Positions 4,376 to 59,711 of a DNA stretch of 64,000 bases are shown piece after piece. The notes beneath the pieces are model-generated. The model saw nothing but the letters and a program-made list of their open reading frames with translations, did no database searches and was not told where the DNA came from. Within the stretch, counting starts at the first letter, position 1; each line of letters starts with the position of its first letter. The translations under genes were made by a program, and so were the position numbers. This stretch comes from a virus. The stretch spans positions 1 to 64,000 of IMG/VR virus record IMGVR_UViG_3300031772_002739. One strand, given 5' to 3'.

Positions 4376-7300
4376 ATGAGTATTCAAGAAGGTGGAAGAT
4401 TCAGTCCAGTTGATCGTATAGTAAGCCCTGGCGTATTTACCCGTGAAAATGATTTATCAGGTATTGCACAAGGTGTGGCTGATATTGGCGGTGCAATTGT
4501 AGCCCCATTCCAAAAGGGACCGGGCTTTTCTCCAACACTACTTCGTAATGTAGCTGATCTGGAAGCCAAATTTGGTATCGCAGATGGCGTTTATTACGGA
4601 CCATACACGGCAAAGGAATATCTCAAAGAGCGTGGATTAGTGACCGTATGCCGCGTTGGCGGTTTGACCGGATACAGACAACAATATCCATTTGTCATTT
4701 GGGCAACCAAGGGAACTTGGTTGAGAAACCTATCAGCAGGTACCGTTAACTCTGGAAGTTCTTATATTATGCCGTCCGGTTCAGCAACTGCATTATACAG
4801 CCAAAGCGTTTCCGTATCTGGCGCAAATTTGATATTCAACTCTGCTTCAATAGTAGTGACTTTTACTGACACCCCGTTGGATGCCGATGCAGCAACCGGT
4901 GAGGTTGGGTCGAGTGGTAGTATATTATATTCTAGTCAAACAGTAACTCTTGGAACATCCACATTAACCGTGGCAACTCAATCTACTAATATTTATAGTG
5001 GAACGGGAAGCGTTCCTAACTATAGCGTATACGATCTTGTATTAAGTGGATCTCTATCTGGAACATTTACAAATCCAACTACGTTGACGTTAGTTGATGA
5101 TTCTTCTCCGTTCGATTCTGGTATTAAACTCTATAGAGGTGCCTTTTATGTAGAAACAGGATCTTGTCCTGGAAATTATGTTTTCCATTTGAAAGGTATG
5201 GTATCAGGAACGTTTGGAAGATACAACGGTTCATTCACTCATGGTGCTTCAACATTTAATGTTTGTGAAAATTCGTGGTCGTCAGCTACACCAGATCAAA
5301 GAGTATTAGCCGTATTAGCTGATACCCAGTATGGTGGGATTAATAGCAGTTTAGTGGCTCCTGGATTTTCAGGATCATTATTGGATTATAGTGGTAGTGC
5401 TGTCACGGGAGTTCAAGGTGTTCTTAATGGATACCGATTAGAGAACAATGGTAATTCCATTTCCAATAATTTCGTAATGAGAGTAAAATCGACGGATAGT
5501 GTGGTCTCTTATGGTGATTATGTATTTTCAATGGATGCCTCGAGCACTAAGTATATCACCAGCGTATTCGGCAATAATCCTCAAGCTGGCGACCCTGATA
5601 AACAGGTATCCGGACAAAAGATTGAAGCTGGTTATCTGTATAAGGTATTTGAAAACGCCATCGCTGAAGTCATAGCTAGTAACGACGAATGGTTCATAAG
5701 TGGAAGTTGGTTGCCAAATGCAAGAAATTTCTTGGGTGAACCAATGAAGTTTACTGATGATTATTCCTTAAACCTTGCGGCAGGCGACTCGGTATATGCC
5801 TTAAGGCAGGCTGAAACTCCTTGGATCGTTTCTCAACAGATCGCTTCTTGGGATGGAACAACCACCCCAACAAGATTCCGTATGTTTAAAGTTCATACGT
5901 TATCTGACGGAACTTATACCAATAAAGAATATAAGATTGAAGTCAGCAGAGTAAAACTCGCTGGAACCGTTGCTGGCAGTGATTGGGGATCTTTCACTTT
6001 GACGCTTCGTAAATTTAGTGATACAGATCGTCGTCCAGAAATTATGGAACAATTCAATAACTTGAATCTTGATCCAGATTCTTCGAACTATATCGCTCGT
6101 AGAATTGGTGACCGATACAATTATATTAACTTCAATGGTAAAATTCTTGAATACGGCACGTTCTCCAATAATAGTAAGCACATTCGTATTGAGATGAATG
6201 ACGCTACTCTTCCTGTCGCCGCAGTTCCTGCTGGGTTTGAAGCATACGTTACTCCAATCAATAGTAGTATTGGTCGTTGGACTCCTGTGATGAAATACAC
6301 TAAGGCTTCTGTCTATGGATTGAATCCTGGTAAATATCCGTCGGGTATTACGTTTGATGACGCTCCAACAGGCGCAGACGCAGAACTGTTATCTCTATAT
6401 CCAACCAGTTCAACTGGAGTTGGCGCTGCAGAGGATAATAAACAATATATGGCTCCTCTACCTGAGTTTGGAGCATATACAAGTGTCGGAGGGAACGTAG
6501 TGTTCGCTCTGGATTCTGATTATCGTTCTTACGGAGTTGGAATTGGTTCTTACTTAAGCGCCAGTAACGCAGTATCGTATGAATATGATGCTGCCAAGGA
6601 AGTTACCTACGCTAAGATGCGTAAGTTCGTTCTCGGATTTCAAGAGGGATTTGATGGTCAATCGCCAGCTATCGATGTTAAAGTCGGTGGGGATATTATC
6701 CCAGGTAACACACAAGGCATGGATTGTACCAACAGTACTGCTGCCGGTTCAATCGCTTACAAACAAGCCGTCGCATGTCTCGGAAATGCTGATGAGTTTG
6801 ATATCAACTTGATCGTCGCTCCTGGTATTTTACATCAACATCACCCATACGTAACAACGTTGATTGTTGATATGTGTGAGGCAAGAGGAGATTGTTTCTA
6901 TATTTTGGATCTATATTCTGACGATGGTAACCCAGGTGCTGGTCAGGTCGATGAAGTAATATCTTACGCATCGTCTTATGACACAAACTATGCTGCTACC
7001 TATTATCCTTGGATTAAGATTCTTGATACCAATCTCAACAAAATTGTAACCGTTCCCCCATCGGTTGTTATCCCATCGGTTTATGCTGCTAACGATAAAG
7101 TAGCTGCTGAATGGTTTGCACCTGCTGGTCTAAACCGCGGCGGCATTTCAATTGCCACTCAGGTTACTGACAGAACAACTCATACGGAACGGGATGATCT
7201 CTATGAAGGTAAAGTCAACCCAATTGCAGCGTTCCCAGGAGCTGGTATCGTTGTTTGGGGTCAGAAAACTCTACAAGATAAAGCATCAGCACTTGATCGT

Positions 7301-41949: not shown

Positions 41950-42219
41950 ATGAAAAAATCCGATCTTAAAAAATTGATTGAAGAAGTTAATAAAGAGGTG
42001 GAAAGAAACCCTCTATATGTTAAAGGATTTCGTCAAGGTGAAAAAGATGGATATGTCAAAGAAAAGGTTGACGTAAAAGATCAACCTGATATTTATCAGT
42101 TGGGATACAAGAGAGGTTATCAAGCTGGATTTTGGAGATTATACAGCGAAAAGTTGAACAAAGGATTAGCTGCCGCTGGAGAGTTCATGGGGGGTTTTGT
42201 AAACTTAAATCGTAGGTAA
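41950..42219 (+). CDS. Hypothetical protein
   Basis: Leader MKKSDLKKLIEE; Y..G...G..DG repeats. Confidence 0.55.
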   Translation: MKKSDLKKLIEEVNKEVERNPLYVKGFRQGEKDGYVKEKVDVKDQPDIYQLGYKRGYQAGFWRLYSEKLNKGLAAAGEFMGGFVNLNRR

Positions 42220-42244
42220 ACGTTTTGGTAATAATTCATAAGAA

Positions 42245-42270
42245 GACACACCATTTCGGTGTGTTTTTTT
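42245..42270 (+). terminator. Rho-independent terminator
   Basis: GACACACC-atttc-GGTGTGTT followed by a T-run. Confidence 0.8.
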
Positions 42271-42280
42271 ATTTTCTCAC

Positions 42281-42308
42281 TTGACATCCTATAAAAGAGT
42301 GGTATTGT
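42281..42308 (+). promoter_or_regulatory. sigma70-type promoter with extended -10
   Basis: TTGACA-N16-TATTGT preceded by TGG. Confidence 0.65.
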
Positions 42309-42317
42309 ATCTCAACA

Positions 42318-42632
42318 ATGAAAACCCCGAATCTAATCAACATGGCAAATATAGACGTTACGAAAATGCTAGCGGATTGTTGGAGTCTAAAACCCAACGA
42401 CCTGATTATTGACAAACTTAAATGGAAGTATATGGTATGGTCCGTATTGAGAGGAAAGAACATCCTCTTTGTTGGTCCCACTCGTTGTGGAAAAACTAAA
42501 GCCGCTCAAAGTGTTTCTGAAATATTTTCTGAAATTAAAACTGAAATTGTTGATGAAAACCAATTGGACGTTCTTAAATCCGATAGAAGCATTAAAATAG
42601 AAAAAATAGAGGAAGTTTCAGATGAAAAGTAG
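42318..42632 (+). CDS. MoxR/CbbQ-like AAA+ ATPase, N-terminal fragment (Walker A) plus 34-aa extension
   Basis: RGKNILFVGPTRCGKTKAAQSV. Confidence 0.85.
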   Translation: MKTPNLINMANIDVTKMLADCWSLKPNDLIIDKLKWKYMVWSVLRGKNILFVGPTRCGKTKAAQSVSEIFSEIKTEIVDENQLDVLKSDRSIKIEKIEEVSDEK

Positions 42633-42670
42633 AGTTGGAATATACTTATATCTGTAATAGAAAGTATATT

Positions 42671-43435
42671 ATGATGGTGATTTATAAAACTATAAACCTA
42701 ATAAATGAAAAATATTATGTTGGAAAACAACAAAGATATACAAAGTCATATTTAGGTTCTGGTTCAGCACTAAAATCTGCCATAAAGAAATATGGAAGAA
42801 GAAATTTTAGGAAAGAAATCTTAGAAATTTGTAAATCAGAATCCGATTTGGAAAAAAAAGAATTGGAGTGGTTGGATAAACTAAACGCTATAAAGGATAA
42901 AAACTCGTATAATTTAGTAAGAGAAACATCGCCCAATAAACATAGAAGTTATACAGACCCAAAATATAGAAAACGATTGAGTAATTCTATTAAAAAAATA
43001 TTTAACACTCCAGAATCACATATTCGGTTAAGCAAACAAAATAGAGGAAAAAACAACCCGATGTATGGTAAAAAAAGATCGAAAGAGTTTAAAAAAGTGG
43101 TTAGCAAAATCCATTCGGGAAAAGTAGTATCTGACGAAACCAGAGAAAAAATACGAAATAGTCGAATAGGAAGAAAAGCATCGTCTGAAACAAAAAACCG
43201 GATGAAAGAAAGCCAGCGCCATCGTTGGGATACTATAAAAGTAAAAATGATATTAAACAACAATCACATGTGGAGTTTCGACAATAGATATGATTTTATA
43301 TCTTTTATAAAAGATTATAATAATTCTATACCAAAAGGAAAAGTAAGAGGGTCAGGTCCTAAAAGAATTAATTGGAAACGAGCAATAAAAAATGAATATG
43401 ACTTCATAAAGGTACATAAAAATGAAAAAATATAA
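42671..43435 (+). mobile_element. GIY-YIG (Seg-like) homing endonuclease with NUMOD3 repeats, inserted in the AAA gene
   Basis: VIYKTINLINEKYYVGK, YLGSG..L..AIKKYG..NF.KEIL, SYNL, NPMYGK, SDETREKI; ATG 42671. Confidence 0.9.
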
Positions 43436-44222
43436 AGTTACATATAAAAAATATAATAGACCATTGTTTATTTTCAATTGCGGGTCTTCTCAAGACGCTC
43501 GAGCTACTTTAATAGGTAATACTTACTTTAAAAAAGACACAGGAACAATTCTCTGTAAATCTGAATTTGTTGAAGCAATACAAACACATAACGCAATCAT
43601 CTTATTAGATGAACTAAGTAGAGGGCATCACGATTTTTGGAATATTTTACTTCCCACTATCGATCCGACACAACGGACTCTTAGGTTAGATGAGTCGGAG
43701 AATTCTGCCGTAATTCACGTCCTACCAGACGTAACGTTTATGGCTACGGCTAATGTTGGTAATGAATATACGTCAACAAAAGTTATGGATAAAGCTTTGA
43801 CGGCCAGGTTCCCTACAATTATTGAAATGATTCCTTTGGAATATGAAGGAGAAATGGAGTTGTTGAAAATTAATCATCCAGATGTTCTTCAAGACGTTTT
43901 GGAAGGATTCATTTCTATCTGTCGTATTTCTGATGATACTAAAAAACAATGTAGGTTAGATAATCCAAGAATTACCACTTTCATTCCTACCGGAACTGTA
44001 GTCGAAATGGCCGAAATGCTTATCGACGGGTTTTCGTTAATGGATATCGCCCAATCTGTAATTTATCCGATGTATGACGATTCCGGCGGAGCCGAATCTG
44101 AACGGTTGTATGTTAAACAGATTGTTCAGAAATATCTTGATAACAAGTCAGGGGGCGTAAGTTCTCCAATCAACGATCCGTTAAATAAGGTTGGAACCTC
44201 GGGGAACAAGTTCAGTTTTTAA
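43422..44222 (+). CDS. MoxR/CbbQ-like AAA+ ATPase, C-terminal fragment with 11-aa extension
   Basis: RPLFIFNCGS..LIGN, Walker B IILLDELSR, FMATANVG, MDKALTARF. Confidence 0.88.
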   Translation: MKKYKVTYKKYNRPLFIFNCGSSQDARATLIGNTYFKKDTGTILCKSEFVEAIQTHNAIILLDELSRGHHDFWNILLPTIDPTQRTLRLDESENSAVIHVLPDVTFMATANVGNEYTSTKVMDKALTARFPTIIEMIPLEYEGEMELLKINHPDVLQDVLEGFISICRISDDTKKQCRLDNPRITTFIPTGTVVEMAEMLIDGFSLMDIAQSVIYPMYDDSGGAESERLYVKQIVQKYLDNKSGGVSSPINDPLNKVGTSGNKFSF

Positions 44223-44223
44223 T

Positions 44224-46503
44224 ATGTCAAAAAAGGTTGAAAATTCGGAAACGTATTCCGATTTTTGGTTGGACGATGAGTTAATCAGCCAGTTTATTGG
44301 CGACGAAACTCAAGAATCCGAAGAGGGCGAAACGCCTTCTGCTCCGATGTTTTCGTTAGATTTGATTCAGTTAGCGGCATATCGAAAGGTGATATCCAAT
44401 TTTGTATCCATTCTTACAAATAAAGATGTTCCGGTTAAATTCATTACTACAGGCAATAATTCCAGCGATGGAAATGTGGTATACCTCTCTTCCTCAATTA
44501 AAAAGAAAAAAGATTTTGATTGGAATGTTGGTCTATCTCTCCACGAGGCGGAACACATTGTAAAAAGTGATTGGGATATGGTTAAGAAATTTTATACCAT
44601 CGTTCCACAACATCTTAAAGATAAAGCTAAAAAGAAAAATATCACCAATGAACAATTATGTCAGTTTTGTAAACACGTTTGGAATGTAATTGAGGATCGT
44701 TATATCGATATGTTGGTTTTTACGGATGCTCCTGGATATCGTGGGTATTATGAAGCGATGTATAATAAATTGTGGAATAGTAAATCTATATCGGATGGGT
44801 TAAAATCCAAATTATTTAGAATATCAAATTTGATTGGATATGAATTTCGTATCACAAATCTTACTAATGTTGATACCGAGGTTGATGCTCTTCCTGGGTT
44901 GAGGAAAATCGCCGAAACGATTGATATAACAAATATTTTAAGATTGAAAACTACTCAAGATAGGGTAGACGTTTCTTTTAAGGTTGTAGAAATTGTTTTG
45001 GATAATATTGGAAAACAGCCCGTTCAACCAACTGAAACTGATAAGATTATCAAAAAAATTAAGGATGTGGTGGGATCGCCTTCGCCAAGTGGAGGAACTG
45101 GTTCAGATGGTGATGAAGATGATGACGATAATAATAAAAACGATTCAGATTCAGGAGGAGATTCTACGGATGATGATGATGAAGACGATTCTAAAAATGG
45201 ATCTTCTGGAGATAAAGAGGAAAAAGATGGAGAAGAAGATGGAAAAGGATCTGGAGATGATAAATCGTCAGATTCGGGGTCAGATAAATCAGATAACACA
45301 TCCGATCCAACCAACCCAGGAAAAGACGATGACTTGTCTGACAAAAAAGTTAAAGCCATAAAAAAAGCGTTTGAACAGCAGTTAAATTTTCTTTTAAGAA
45401 ATTACGACAAAGCCAAACAAACCGTATCCAAGGAATCGGCCGATTTGTTAGATATTATCGAAAAGGCTGGAATTACTTTAAGAATGGCTGGACATGGGTA
45501 TTCTCAACCTGGAGAAGAAATTCGTGATGGTATTAATTGTATTGTAGTCAATAAGTTGACCAAAGAATTGATGGAAAGTGGGCATCACATTTTTCCACTG
45601 ACCACTATAACCGTGGCCAACAAAACCCCCAATAAATCTTATGAGGATGCCGTAGTTAAAGGGTTTACAATGGGCAAGATGTTGGGTAAGAAACTACAAA
45701 TTCGAAGTGAAACCAACATCACAAAGTATATTCGAAGAATGGCTGGAAAGATTGATAGACGATTGTTGGCTGGTATTGGCGCCGGGTTGGAAGATATCTT
45801 TTTCAAAATTAAAACGGACAAGTATAACAAGGCTCGTCTTCACATCTCCGTGGACGCTAGTGGATCAATGATGGATGACAACAAGTGGTGTCCAACCATG
45901 TCGTTGTTGGTTTCCATTTGTGTAGCATTTTCTATGGTGGAAAATTTGAAGATATCCGTGTCTTTCCGATCTACTCACAGAATGTCTACTGGAGTAGAAT
46001 TACCTTATATTGTGTTGGCCTATGATTCTGATGTGGATAAAATATCAAAGATACGAAATTTGTTTCCATATCTAAAGGCTTCTGGCTGCACCCCCGAGGG
46101 GTTGGCGTTCGAATCCACGATGGATAGTTTTATCATCGGTAAGAAGTCGGATGGAACGGATGTCTATTTCCTTAACATATCTGATGGTGAACCATATTTT
46201 TTCCTGAATGGAATTATGAATAAAAGTCGAACCAATTTCTCATATCAAGGTCAAGGAGCGTGTCTTCACACCAAAAAGCAGATTGAAAAACTTCGGTCTG
46301 CTGGTATAAAGATATTAAGTTATTTTATAGAAAGTGCTGATAGCGGTATAGGATACAATTTATATGGTGTGTCTGGGATTCCCTATAAGGAAACATTATT
46401 CCAACAGTTTAGATTGATGTATGGAAAGGATGCTCAGTTCATTAACATTACCAACGTCTTCCAAATAGCGAAAACAATTAATGGTCTGTTTCTACAGAAA
46501 TGA
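44224..46503 (+). CDS. VWA-domain partner of the AAA ATPase (HExxH domain, acidic linker, VWA)
   Basis: LHEAEH, WNVIEDRYID, D/S/G-rich linker, GKIDRR, MIDAS VDASGSM, TPEG, ISDGEP. Confidence 0.85.
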   Translation: MSKKVENSETYSDFWLDDELISQFIGDETQESEEGETPSAPMFSLDLIQLAAYRKVISNFVSILTNKDVPVKFITTGNNSSDGNVVYLSSSIKKKKDFDWNVGLSLHEAEHIVKSDWDMVKKFYTIVPQHLKDKAKKKNITNEQLCQFCKHVWNVIEDRYIDMLVFTDAPGYRGYYEAMYNKLWNSKSISDGLKSKLFRISNLIGYEFRITNLTNVDTEVDALPGLRKIAETIDITNILRLKTTQDRVDVSFKVVEIVLDNIGKQPVQPTETDKIIKKIKDVVGSPSPSGGTGSDGDEDDDDNNKNDSDSGGDSTDDDDEDDSKNGSSGDKEEKDGEEDGKGSGDDKSSDSGSDKSDNTSDPTNPGKDDDLSDKKVKAIKKAFEQQLNFLLRNYDKAKQTVSKESADLLDIIEKAGITLRMAGHGYSQPGEEIRDGINCIVVNKLTKELMESGHHIFPLTTITVANKTPNKSYEDAVVKGFTMGKMLGKKLQIRSETNITKYIRRMAGKIDRRLLAGIGAGLEDIFFKIKTDKYNKARLHISVDASGSMMDDNKWCPTMSLLVSICVAFSMVENLKISVSFRSTHRMSTGVELPYIVLAYDSDVDKISKIRNLFPYLKASGCTPEGLAFESTMDSFIIGKKSDGTDVYFLNISDGEPYFFLNGIMNKSRTNFSYQGQGACLHTKKQIEKLRSAGIKILSYFIESADSGIGYNLYGVSGIPYKETLFQQFRLMYGKDAQFINITNVFQIAKTINGLFLQK

Positions 46504-57835: not shown

Positions 57836-58933
57836 TTACCAAATAAAATTATCTCTGTAATATTGTATTACACTTGGTAATTCTTTGTCAAATTCACAAG
57901 TTATTTTCCATCCTAATGATTTTAGTTTGTTACTATCTATACTATAACGAACATCTTGCCCACTTCTTGTGTAAGAAAAATCACATATTTCTTCCATATT
58001 GTTATTATTCAAACCATTGTCTTTTGATTGGAATGAAAAAAATCCATTCTCATCTTTGTAATTTATAAGAATACAATTATTGCCATAAATATTTACCCTA
58101 GAATCGGGAATTTGTGAGTCGATTTTTCTTTCAATATTGTGTTTTCCTTTTATACCAAGGATTTTTGCGATTTTTGCTACAACTCTCCAATTTTCTATTT
58201 CATAATCTCCAGCAATATTATAAATTTCATTTAATTTTCCTTTTTCTACAACAGTTAATATGCCATCAACACAATCATTTATGTGAAGCCATGTTCTGAT
58301 AGGCAAACCAAGATTATGAAGTGAAATTTTTTTACCAAGAATTAAATTTCGACATGTTTTAGGAATTAGTTTTTCAGAATTTTGACGCGTTCCCCAAGTA
58401 TTTGTAGCTCTTCCTATTTTATATTTAATATCATATGTTCTAGCGTAAGATTTTACTAATAAATCTGCACTAGCTTTTGAAAAAGAATATGGATTGCTTG
58501 GATTATAATTATCCGTTTCTACATGAGACCCGATTCCGATAGCATCTCCATAAATTTCATCAGTAGACATTTGATAAAAAAGAGGTCGAATTTTTTTGTG
58601 ACGAATAATTTCTAATAAATTATGAACGCCATTTATGTTAGATTTTAAAAATTCATTACTGTTTTCTATACTATTATCAACATGAGATTCTGCACAAATA
58701 TTAAATAATATATCTAAGTCTGGAAGATGTTTTATATCATTAATATCTTTATGTTCGAATTTAAATTGTTTATTATATTTAATTTTAAATTCATCCATTA
58801 ATTTTGGATAAGAACAATAGGATAATTTATCTACACCATATACATACCACCCCATTGCTAAGCATTTTTCTGTCAAATGACTTCCAATAAACCCAGCACA
58901 TCCAGTTATCATGCAAATTTTTATATCATTCAT
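57836..58933 (-). CDS. rfbB: dTDP-glucose 4,6-dehydratase-like
   Basis: ITGCAGFIGS, DKLSY, AESHVDNSI, STDEIYG, PSNPYSFSKA, EKLIP, R.WLHI.D, GQDVRYSID; ATG 58933 preferred. Confidence 0.88.
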   Translation of the reverse strand: MNDIKICMITGCAGFIGSHLTEKCLAMGWYVYGVDKLSYCSYPKLMDEFKIKYNKQFKFEHKDINDIKHLPDLDILFNICAESHVDNSIENSNEFLKSNINGVHNLLEIIRHKKIRPLFYQMSTDEIYGDAIGIGSHVETDNYNPSNPYSFSKASADLLVKSYARTYDIKYKIGRATNTWGTRQNSEKLIPKTCRNLILGKKISLHNLGLPIRTWLHINDCVDGILTVVEKGKLNEIYNIAGDYEIENWRVVAKIAKILGIKGKHNIERKIDSQIPDSRVNIYGNNCILINYKDENGFFSFQSKDNGLNNNNMEEICDFSYTRSGQDVRYSIDSNKLKSLGWKITCEFDKELPSVIQYYRDNFIW

Positions 58934-59711
58934 ACATTTTCCATCCTCCAACCGAATTAAATTTTCTTTTAATTAATTGCCCTAAATTTCCTTGATTTAA
59001 TTTGTATTTTGTTCTTAAATTATATTGAGTAGATTCTTCGATTCCATGTTTAGGGTGAATAAATTTATACACGTTATTGTCATATTGTGAATGTTTTTCT
59101 CCACGTTGTGCATTACTCATTTTTAATCGGGCTTCTATAGAATGAGTTTTTCCTTTTAATTTTTTACTCATTTTTAATTTGGTTTCGTCTGAAAGACGTT
59201 TTCCAAAAAGATGATTCTTTTTACCTTTACATGCATTACTCATTTTTATTAAAGTTTCAGTTGAAAACATTCTTCCTTTAAGTGAATTTCCTATTTTAAT
59301 TTTTGTTTTTTCGGGAAGACGTTTTCGAAAATGAGGATGATTACTTCCTTTTTTTGCTATACTCATTTTCATTCGTGTTTCTGGTGAACGAGTTAATCCT
59401 CTACTTGGGCAAATTGAGTTGTATCCTATATTATAAGATTTGAATGGAAACATTTTACACCAATCCAAATAATATTGCTCTACCTCTTGTAATTGTTTTG
59501 ATGATAATTTCTCTTCTATTTTAAATATAAACCCATCCTCTCCATATTTATTCCAAGCATTTTGAAGATATAAATTTTTATGTTTATTGTTTTTTAATTC
59601 GTTTTTATGATTGATAAATCTACGAGTTATATCGGAAGATGAACCGTAATATACTTTTTCATTATTTATATTTGTTATGCTATAAATTCCTGATGTTTTT
59701 ATTTTTTTCAT
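58926..59711 (-). mobile_element. Free-standing GIY-YIG homing endonuclease with NUMOD3 repeats
   Basis: SGIYSITNINNEKVYYGSS, R...H..L....H.N..LQ.AWNKYG, EQYYLD, repeated SxETxxKMS. Confidence 0.9.

Follow-up and report, generated by a model that had tools for sequence, protein, structure and literature searches.

Introduction

Two described systems show how an enzyme gene can be cut in two by a homing endonuclease gene and carry additional peptides on its halves. In the Aeh1 enzyme NrdA-a/NrdA-b, the tails that arose with the insertion of mobE are essential, and element-derived tails were proposed there as a general alternative to RNA splicing and protein splicing (Crona et al. 2010, PMC3045599). 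The MobA element of T4, which lies at gene 39/60, bears conserved extensions on both halves of its host enzyme (Manning & Atkins 2022, bioRxiv 10.1101/2022.08.31.505936), and these extensions form a pendant domain that has been named the 'assembly bracket' (PMC11461880). We describe a comparable locus in a stretch of virus DNA of 64,000 nucleotides (nt), positions 1 to 64,000 of the IMG/VR record IMGVR_UViG_3300031772_002739, hereafter called the window. A GIY-YIG homing endonuclease gene there interrupts the gene of an AAA+ ATPase, and both ATPase halves carry a short additional peptide at the break: a 34-residue tail on the N-terminal half (N-half) and an 11-residue head on the C-terminal half (C-half).

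A preliminary description of the window had suggested that the two peptides reassemble the enzyme non-covalently and had presented this as a new, third strategy beside RNA and protein splicing. The novelty of the strategy does not stand, the proposal having been made by Crona et al. (2010, PMC3045599) and the life cycle of MobA having been laid out by Manning & Atkins (2022). Like the Aeh1 MobE and T4 MobA elements, the locus has in-frame extensions on the two halves that uninterrupted alleles lack and that move together with the endonuclease. The record that contains the window holds 73,465 bases at a CheckV completeness of 17%, which suggests a genome of several hundred kilobases (kb); contigs of relatives reach 365 kb, with one further record of 484 kb, and the host of the cassette is a very large uncultured phage.

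Results

An exact split in an AAA+ ATPase gene

Four open reading frames (ORFs) lie head to tail on the plus strand across positions 42318-46503, encoding the N-half, the endonuclease, the C-half and a partner protein of the ATPase (Table 1). The insert between the two ATPase halves measures 927 nt and codes for the tail, a GIY-YIG/NUMOD3 endonuclease and the head; in the window, the N- and C-halves share one reading frame. Re-reading of the ORFs returned the coordinates, peptide lengths, 927-nt insert, 38 non-coding nt and ATG overlap of the preliminary description unaltered. The head ATG is situated 14 nt within the endonuclease 3′ end. The tail, whose codons occupy 42528..42629, has a net charge of −5 and the head a net charge of +5, in keeping with their earlier characterization as acidic and basic. 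Two in-frame start codons are available to the N-half, ATG 42318 (104 residues) and ATG 42342 (96 residues), the second being the likelier start by alignment with relatives.

The position of the break was read against 76 related loci, on 75 contigs, from GenBank phages and IMG/VR. Seventy-four of these are unsplit and lack the peptides (68 classified by motif spacing, six by contiguous tblastn matches only), one is split (locus L012), and one has the peptides fused (L019). In the unsplit ATPases, the segment KAAxSVAxxx continues directly into xRPxFxFN[LC]G. Joining the SEIF that ends the N-half core to the NRPLF that follows the head yields the sequence of the unsplit relatives with zero residues gained or lost; the ATPase is therefore continuous when the end at 42527 meets the start at 43455, as had been claimed, and as it is in the 74 unsplit loci. 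The break falls in the loop that leads from the Walker A helix to strand β2. Phage GenBank records offered four relatives, and the two that we looked at are both unsplit. Within IMG/VR, split and unsplit loci share merely ~65-80% DNA identity; the sole close split/unsplit DNA pair, L083/L084, came from a metagenome scan.

Conservation and selection of the tail and the head

A search with the N-half retrieved four further short N-halves, 62-69% identical, with tails that can be aligned throughout (xEIKTEIV..L..LKS..IKI..IEE.S). The conserved tail is present on nine other short N-halves, among them P0003 (that of L012), P0004, P0005 (that of L083) and P0006, and also on the short N-halves of L079, L080, L082 and L085. 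The corresponding C-half search produced 3351 proteins at an expectation value (E) ≤1e-30, the best 120 clusters of which were classified. Split C-halves with a head make up 28 of these 120, the window's own counted; they are 220-270 residues long and start with M-x(1-2)-YKV-x-YKKY. Four clusters have the tail and the head fused in unsplit proteins, and the remainder are unsplit without the peptides. Across 27 split C-halves, head positions Y4, K5 and V6 are conserved at 90% or more and Y8 at 100%, with overall identity to the window protein at just 53-68%.

The ratio of nonsynonymous to synonymous substitution rates (dN/dS; NG86, seven split loci with DNA) is 0.22 for the tail and 0.12 for the head, next to 0.15 for the N core, 0.10 and 0.20 for the proximal and distal parts of the C-half, and 0.16 for the endonuclease, all of these values being rough because dS is saturated in many pairs. 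The tail and the head are under purifying selection.

Traces of cassette transfer among ATPase alleles

Our main tree (quick IQ-TREE, 115 rows) covers the ATPase beginning at Walker B; split alleles are scattered over it, and the split label takes 18 changes, at least 14 of which are forced by well-supported branches. FastTree reconstructions gave 20 changes, at least 15 forced, for the distal 150 residues, and nine changes, at least two forced, for the 70 residues right after the break. Many split alleles pair tightly on the tree with an unsplit, insertion-less allele. We aligned 14 such pairs, choosing the unsplit tree neighbor by eye; in ten of them, identity is ~0.5-0.9 over the first 60-90 residues past the break and mostly 0.9-1.0 thereafter. 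The pair P0011/P0029, for instance, runs through 0.63, 0.60 and 0.83, and then 1.00 four times. The split proteins P0008, P0010 and P0012 differ in their distal backbones and have near-identical proximal segments (support 97, branches ≤0.016). Upstream of the break, four split N-halves and unsplit alleles free of the insertion are 84-92% identical up to 'KAAxSVA', where the match ends.

The DNA of L083 and L084 follows the same course. Identity is ~90% up to codon 61; the tail, spacer and head are without counterpart; and past the head, identity is 63-77% for ~300 nt before it returns to ~90%. As read from these alignments, the identity pattern is what homing with co-conversion on one side leaves behind, and presence/absence polymorphism at one site is found together with co-conversion of the flank. 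The tail and the head are part of the transferred unit, because recipients have nothing homologous to either; the absence of any counterpart in insertion-less sister alleles likewise bears out the earlier view that the peptides belong to the mobile element. Sequence comparison shows the tail, endonuclease and head moving as one unit among ATPase alleles of related phages, a transfer that drags along ~300 nt (60-90 codons) downstream and almost nothing upstream, and a cassette gained or lost many times.

Nuclease-free and fused alleles

Locus L083 has lost the nuclease gene, is still split and has both peptides intact, so that the extensions are conserved and retained after endonuclease loss. 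Its halves are separated by a 34-nt spacer, in which the tail end is followed by the last 14 endonuclease codons (ALKGEYEFIKVIPK-stop) and then by the head ATG, and they lie in different reading frames.

In a further set of alleles, a single protein contains both the tail and the head, which a loop of 2-12 residues connects across the break point. These are L019, P0114, P0120, P0124 and P0126, and they are unsplit homologues that already contain the peptides, a class that the preliminary description had named as weighing against its proposal. Over the proximal 70 columns, L019 and the split P0067 do not differ, and the two are sisters at support 97. The L019 junction reads IKIDD-MNYKV, its second part being a frequent sequence of split heads; a Met stands at the site of the head's initiator Met in three of the five fused forms. 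The closeness of L019 to P0067 and the Met at the head start favor secondary fusion, which we regard as somewhat likelier than an ancestral native insertion. Among the unsplit proteins, P0085 (307 residues) has the FNCG segment and no insertion, and reads GHTRCGTT instead of GKT, with the Walker A lysine replaced; P0085 may be a decaying copy.

Predicted structure of the peptides and the halves

The AlphaFold2 model of the fused P0114, built on a 50-row alignment, has a predicted local distance difference test (pLDDT) score of 90.4, rising to 95-97 over the insertion. After the Walker A helix, the model has a strand (73-80), a helix (82-90), a second strand (94-102), a turn (103-104) and a third strand (105-113), followed by β2; the cassette break point corresponds to the two-residue turn 103-104. 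The tail is thus predicted to form a strand-helix-strand unit and the head a further strand, paired with the last one of the tail, in agreement with the secondary structure pattern suggested in the preliminary description.

Modelled as a complex, the window's own halves scored an interaction prediction score from aligned errors (ipSAE) of 0.76, against 0.00 for the best of three controls. Of 80 solved complexes, 58 attain this mark, as do two of 110 mismatched pairs; the calibration is only rough because custom alignments were supplied. The runs share at least 94% of contacts, and the partner pLDDT is at least 83. The confident interface comprises tail residues 62-72, 75, 78 and 82-92 (96-residue numbering), head residues 1-15 and core strands. 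In these models, the peptides together make up a small predicted unit of sheet and helix that is divided at the hairpin turn.

Introns, inteins and translational bypass

An Rfam search of 42000..44500 at E ≤10 gave six chance-level matches and no intron family. Group I introns have a G at the 3′ end, and group II introns follow GUGYG...AY; at the 3′ junction of this insert, there is no G within the ambiguous bases. With the L083 spacer at only 34 nt in addition, a group I or group II intron was rejected. Pfam at E ≤10, run on six N-halves and three fused forms, reported P-loop families only and no Hint or intein family, and a profile of the five fused mini-domains found no intein among PDB sequences (two irrelevant matches, E 0.14 and 0.6). 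Directly after the head stands N, D, S, L, T or K, and in no case Cys. A Hint fold takes ~130 residues or more, for which 45 residues are too few. On the Hint result, the peptide lengths (34 + 11 residues) and the residue after the head, an intein or split intein was likewise rejected, and the statement that the gene contains neither intron nor intein withstands the Rfam, Pfam and PDB-profile searches and the 34-nt spacer of L083. Splicing is not expected here, given the lack of a Hint domain and of a nucleophile behind the head. The tail start (S or C, then xxx-TEI-V/L) loosely resembles what we take to be intein block A, and the strand-helix-strand-strand order presumably resembles the first 45 Hint residues, two likenesses without computed support. 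Bypass or frameshifting was also rejected: the L083 halves lie 34 nt apart in different frames, and no in-frame matching take-off and landing codons were seen.

The ATPase and its partner

The ATPase is of the NorQ/CbbQ type (MoxR-class AAA+) with a VWA partner. Pfam assigns the C-half to AAA_5; against CbbQ_C (cut-off 20.6 bits), the fused relative P0114 scores 24.3 bits and P0124, slightly below the cut-off, 19.2 bits. A fold search with the P0114 model returned NorQ (E 1.2e-15, template modelling score 0.83 on target) and CbbQ as top matches, and the sequence profile of the ATPase matches the midasin AAA domain (E 2.8e-29), CobS and NorQ. The columns D63/E64, N111 and R129, which we take to be Walker B, sensor 1 and the Arg finger, are invariant in the 27 split C-halves; the catalytic motifs had been said to look intact, in keeping with this invariance. 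Two extended homologues were noted in passing. In L001 (3041-4723; Microcystis phage Mel-JY01, PP395634.1), the ATPase homologue is annotated with 560 residues, with an N-terminal extension of ~235 residues beyond the window protein, and the IMG/VR relatives L004 and L006-L009 have ATPase N-terminal extensions of 60-90 residues.

The VWA domain of the partner was not seen by Pfam, PHROG or PDB sequence search. The AlphaFold2 model of its last 367 residues (pLDDT 83.6) is closest to the VWA domain of NorD in the NorQ complex (E 1.4e-9) and also matches the Rea1 MIDAS (E 2.7e-7), so that the predicted fold bears out the VWA nature asserted earlier. The partner carries the sequence DASGS, presumably a DxSxS motif. 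Its middle (window 45150-45420) is a long acidic, Asp/Ser/Gly-rich low-complexity stretch that is shorter or missing in some relatives; the L002 partner has 632 residues, compared to 759 here.

The endonuclease, its leader and its neighbors

The middle ORF had been called a GIY-YIG gene, an identification to which Pfam and PHROG agree: it matches PF01541 GIY-YIG (22.8 bits, cut-off 22.6), PF19835 SegE_GIY-YIG (25.6 bits, cut-off 25), PF07460 NUMOD3 (43.7 bits) and phrog_314 'homing endonuclease' (E 5.5e-29). The gene is free-standing, with its own start codon, stops in the host frame and no intron or intein. The encoded protein begins with MMVIYKT, a start shared by five homologues. Homologues of 57-75% identity occupy the same site in five other loci, and the family is located solely at the ATPase site in all four IMG/VR viral-contig loci and in L085. 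A nucleotide search of phage GenBank records gave a sole match, of 175 nt, to the endonuclease 5′ part.

Leader and tail stop codon together form a motif, GTAGAGTTGGAATATAYTTAT..CTG, of ~30 nt that is largely conserved in six loci (window 42621-42670) and may serve the cassette as a promoter or as a site of protein binding. Across the six loci, no conserved RNA structure was found in the leader (consensus energy −0.06 kcal/mol, no compensatory pair), and on these values we rejected a regulatory hairpin of the kind reported for mobE at the start of the endonuclease. In L012, an additional ORF of 74 residues lies between the endonuclease and the C-half (6076-6300, plus strand), its sole match being a below-threshold one to DUF6558 (E 0.0056); the cassette can therefore hold extra cargo. 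The window has a second GIY-YIG/NUMOD3 endonuclease gene at 58926-59711 on the minus strand (260 residues; NUMOD3 77.9 bits, three stretches), which is 34% identical to the ATPase-splitting endonuclease over 86 residues only. One neighbor is an ORF of unknown family. The other is a GDP-mannose 4,6-dehydratase-like gene, the start of which shares 26 nt with the second endonuclease gene. The position of this endonuclease gene appears to be intergenic, not within a gene.

Further features of the locus

The coordinates are collected in Table 1. The promoter-like site upstream of the N-half is a sequence feature only, because the region is not enriched in such sites over shuffled sequence (10, with a mean of 9.5 in shuffles). 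The 16 sequencing runs listed are all DNA runs labelled sediment metagenome, and three of them may be the source of the window. We also compared contigs from such runs. At this locus, the contigs of four other sediment-metagenome runs are short pieces; none spans the locus, and no joint deletes the cassette. One joint, from 41975 to 43916, has a 30-letter side and was seen in a single contig; we do not interpret it. Contigs of the four runs often end near 42577-42606 and 43420-43455, at the edges of the endonuclease region. These ends, which were not used as evidence, could reflect cassette variants in the population or mere assembly noise.

Table 1 Features of the split ATPase locus (window coordinates)
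Feature	Coordinates	Strand	Description
Hairpin and T-run	42246..42275		Directly before the promoter-like site
Promoter-like site (TTGACA, 16 nt, TG-TATTGT)	42281..42308	+	Upstream of the N-half; 10/12 consensus matches
N-half of AAA+ ATPase	42342..42632	+	N-terminal helices, β1, Walker A (GPTRCGKT) and its helix, tail
Tail (34 residues, SEIKTEIV...EEVSDEK, and stop)	42528..42632	+	Cassette-borne C-terminal extension of the N-half
Endonuclease leader	42633..42670	+	38 nt, non-coding
GIY-YIG homing endonuclease	42671..43435	+	Free-standing; NUMOD3 DNA-binding motif; 254 residues
Head (MKKYKVTYKKY, 11 residues)	43422..43454	+	Cassette-borne N-terminal extension of the C-half
C-half of ATPase	43422..44222	+	266 residues; β2, Walker B, other core strands, C-terminal lid
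VWA/MIDAS partner	44224..46503	+	759 residues; C-terminal VWA; adjacency to the ATPase kept in relatives (synteny)

Discussion

We consider it likely that a homing cassette splits the ATPase gene, that it spreads as a unit and that its peptides aid the non-covalent reassembly of the enzyme. The cassette, composed of tail DNA, the GIY-YIG/NUMOD3 gene and head DNA, would have inserted into the loop between the Walker A helix and β2. The halves would be translated separately, the tail stop lying in the largely conserved leader and the head ATG inside or against the endonuclease 3′ end, and would then reassemble without a covalent bond. Their interface may combine the AAA+ core with a 45-residue mini-domain, to which the tail would contribute strand-helix-strand and the head the last strand, with the break at the hairpin turn. 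On the structure models, the two peptides probably clip the ATPase halves together, and the reassembled enzyme would cooperate with the VWA partner in the manner of NorQ and NorD. Spread would follow from cleavage of cassette-free alleles by the endonuclease during mixed infections. As L083 shows, the endonuclease can subsequently be lost from a gene that remains split, and the tail and the head are also found fused. Of the interpretation offered in the preliminary description, the absence of splicing, the element-borne conserved peptides and the predicted shared mini-domain are upheld, and it is as a new strategy that it falls short.

Several points weigh against this proposal. The Aeh1 tails are reported to be dispensable for the binding of the halves to each other (Crona et al. 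2010, PMC3045599). Four of the 14 allele pairs, those with partners P0122, P0066, P0094 and P0085, are without the identity gradient; these partners have the cassette-type FNCG segment and lack the insertion. The window's own allele is without a close unsplit partner, and the trees are quick or FastTree reconstructions from short alignments. The score of the complex may show likeness, not binding, because the halves belong to a domain with solved family structures. The complex output lists no direct head-tail contacts; the hairpin comes from the fused P0114 model.

A different history would make the mini-domain native to an ATPase lineage, in whose hairpin loop the endonuclease landed; the peptides would have spread solely by co-conversion of host flanks, with no contribution from the element itself, and the fused forms would be ancestral. 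This we hold to be possible, if doubtful. It would account for the five unsplit proteins with contiguous peptides and short loops at the break, for the separate deep clade of P0114, P0124 and P0126 (support 100) and for the high-confidence fold on the AAA+ core, and a well-packed strand-helix-strand-strand unit is more easily inherited than invented. It sits poorly with the near-identity of L019 and the split P0067, with P0120 being nested amid split forms, with the Met at the head-initiator site, which suggests fusion after the split, with the secondary fusion reported for the MobA element (Manning & Atkins 2022, bioRxiv 10.1101/2022.08.31.505936) and with an unsplit tree neighbor free of the insertion in 13 of the 14 pairs. 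A stronger version of the reassembly proposal, in which the 45-residue unit is a portable split clip, shaped by selection on the element and both needed and largely sufficient to hold the ATPase pieces, strikes us as unlikely. Under that version, unrelated proteins could be held together by the 34 + 11 pair as well, which might descend remotely from an atypical split intein that has decayed, and the endonuclease would invade a conserved enzyme core at no cost.

The tail and the head might instead be functionless by-products, read-on to the first stop and initiation at the first usable start, with the AAA+ core reassembling on its own. Split proteins do frequently reassemble untagged, and the Aeh1 heterodimers are described as forming without tails (PMC3045599). 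Set against this are the conservation of the peptides, which equals that of the enzyme core over backgrounds that have diverged by 53-70%, their dN/dS of 0.12-0.22, their retention in L083 and in fused forms, and a confident predicted fold with both peptides in the predicted interface; we find this explanation improbable. That splicing or recoding (a group I or II intron, an intein or ribosomal bypass) yields a single polypeptide is a thought invited by the common residence of endonuclease genes in introns and inteins, and by the shared frame of the halves in the window. The negative Rfam, Pfam and PDB-profile searches, the lack of a 3′ G and of Cys after the head, the frames of L083 and the fused forms that keep the peptides in one frame leave it next to no credit. 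Hardly more can be said for a dead gene: the ATPase is interrupted and its unsplit relative P0085 is without the Walker A lysine, whereas the catalytic columns are invariant in 27 split C-halves, dN/dS is 0.10-0.20, and the split form recurs in 28 of the best 120 clusters and in many backgrounds, so that we would assign this reading a very small chance.

The non-covalent reassembly that we favor adds an AAA+ ATPase to the enzymes, ribonucleotide reductase and topoisomerase, for which the solution of an endonuclease with assembly tails is described. The locus offers an unusually complete natural series, comprising the empty site, the occupied site, the nuclease-free split and the re-fused gene, and it has a simple structural reading as a β-hairpin cut at its turn. 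Whether the tails are needed, and for which assembly step, thereby becomes directly testable in a small system, and the 34 + 11 residue pair may serve as a split-protein tag. For annotation, the 'MoxR-like' fragments of ~95 and ~260 residues that are frequent in metagenomes would be halves of a functional gene instead of pseudogenes.

Among known MoxR-class systems, NorQ-NorD, CbbQ-CbbO and CobS-CobT share the ATPase fold and the adjacent gene for a VWA partner; they differ in that their ATPases are single polypeptides, and the phage partner, at 759 residues, has a long acidic middle. The fractured genes with split inteins (Dassa et al. 2009, PMC2677866) also consist of a halved phage enzyme gene with an endonuclease gene between the halves and peptides at the break, but split inteins ligate the halves there. 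As in nrdA-a/mobE/nrdA-b of Aeh1, a free-standing homing endonuclease cuts an enzyme gene between two strands, its gene overlaps the start of the downstream half, and both halves bear oppositely charged, element-derived tails. In Aeh1, however, the endonuclease is of the HNH type and the enzyme a ribonucleotide reductase, in place of GIY-YIG and an AAA+ ATPase here, and the upstream tail is basic there and acidic here. The Aeh1 tails were found by experiment to be essential for dimerization of the heterodimer, not for mutual binding of the halves, whereas the role of the tails here is read from sequence and models. Beyond what is described for Aeh1, the present alleles record numerous independent transfers and include fused forms and a split allele that has lost its nuclease.

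The likeness to T4 MobA goes further still. In both elements, an endonuclease stands between a C-terminal and an N-terminal extension, and the gene and the site of insertion are always the same; both display repeated independent insertions, tight pairs of alleles with and without the element, and a clean 5′ break with a divergent replaced stretch downstream. Loss of the endonuclease with retention of the split and the tails, secondary fusion, and two tails that make a small extra domain (predicted in our case) are likewise common to the two. They part in the host enzyme, a topoisomerase in T4; in the endonuclease, which is HNH there, though some metagenomic versions are GIY-YIG; in the length of the tails, ~44 + 45 residues compared to 34 + 11 here; and in the 50-nt translational bypass of T4, which is absent here. 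We found no published ATPase cassette of this kind in a limited search of the literature on homing endonucleases, split phage genes and MoxR proteins, judged for the MoxR papers by titles and the starts of abstracts; the supplements of Manning & Atkins and of Crona et al. may name more split genes. Set beside its described counterparts, the present cassette is new in its AAA+ ATPase host gene, its GIY-YIG nuclease, its very short head and its lack of a bypass.

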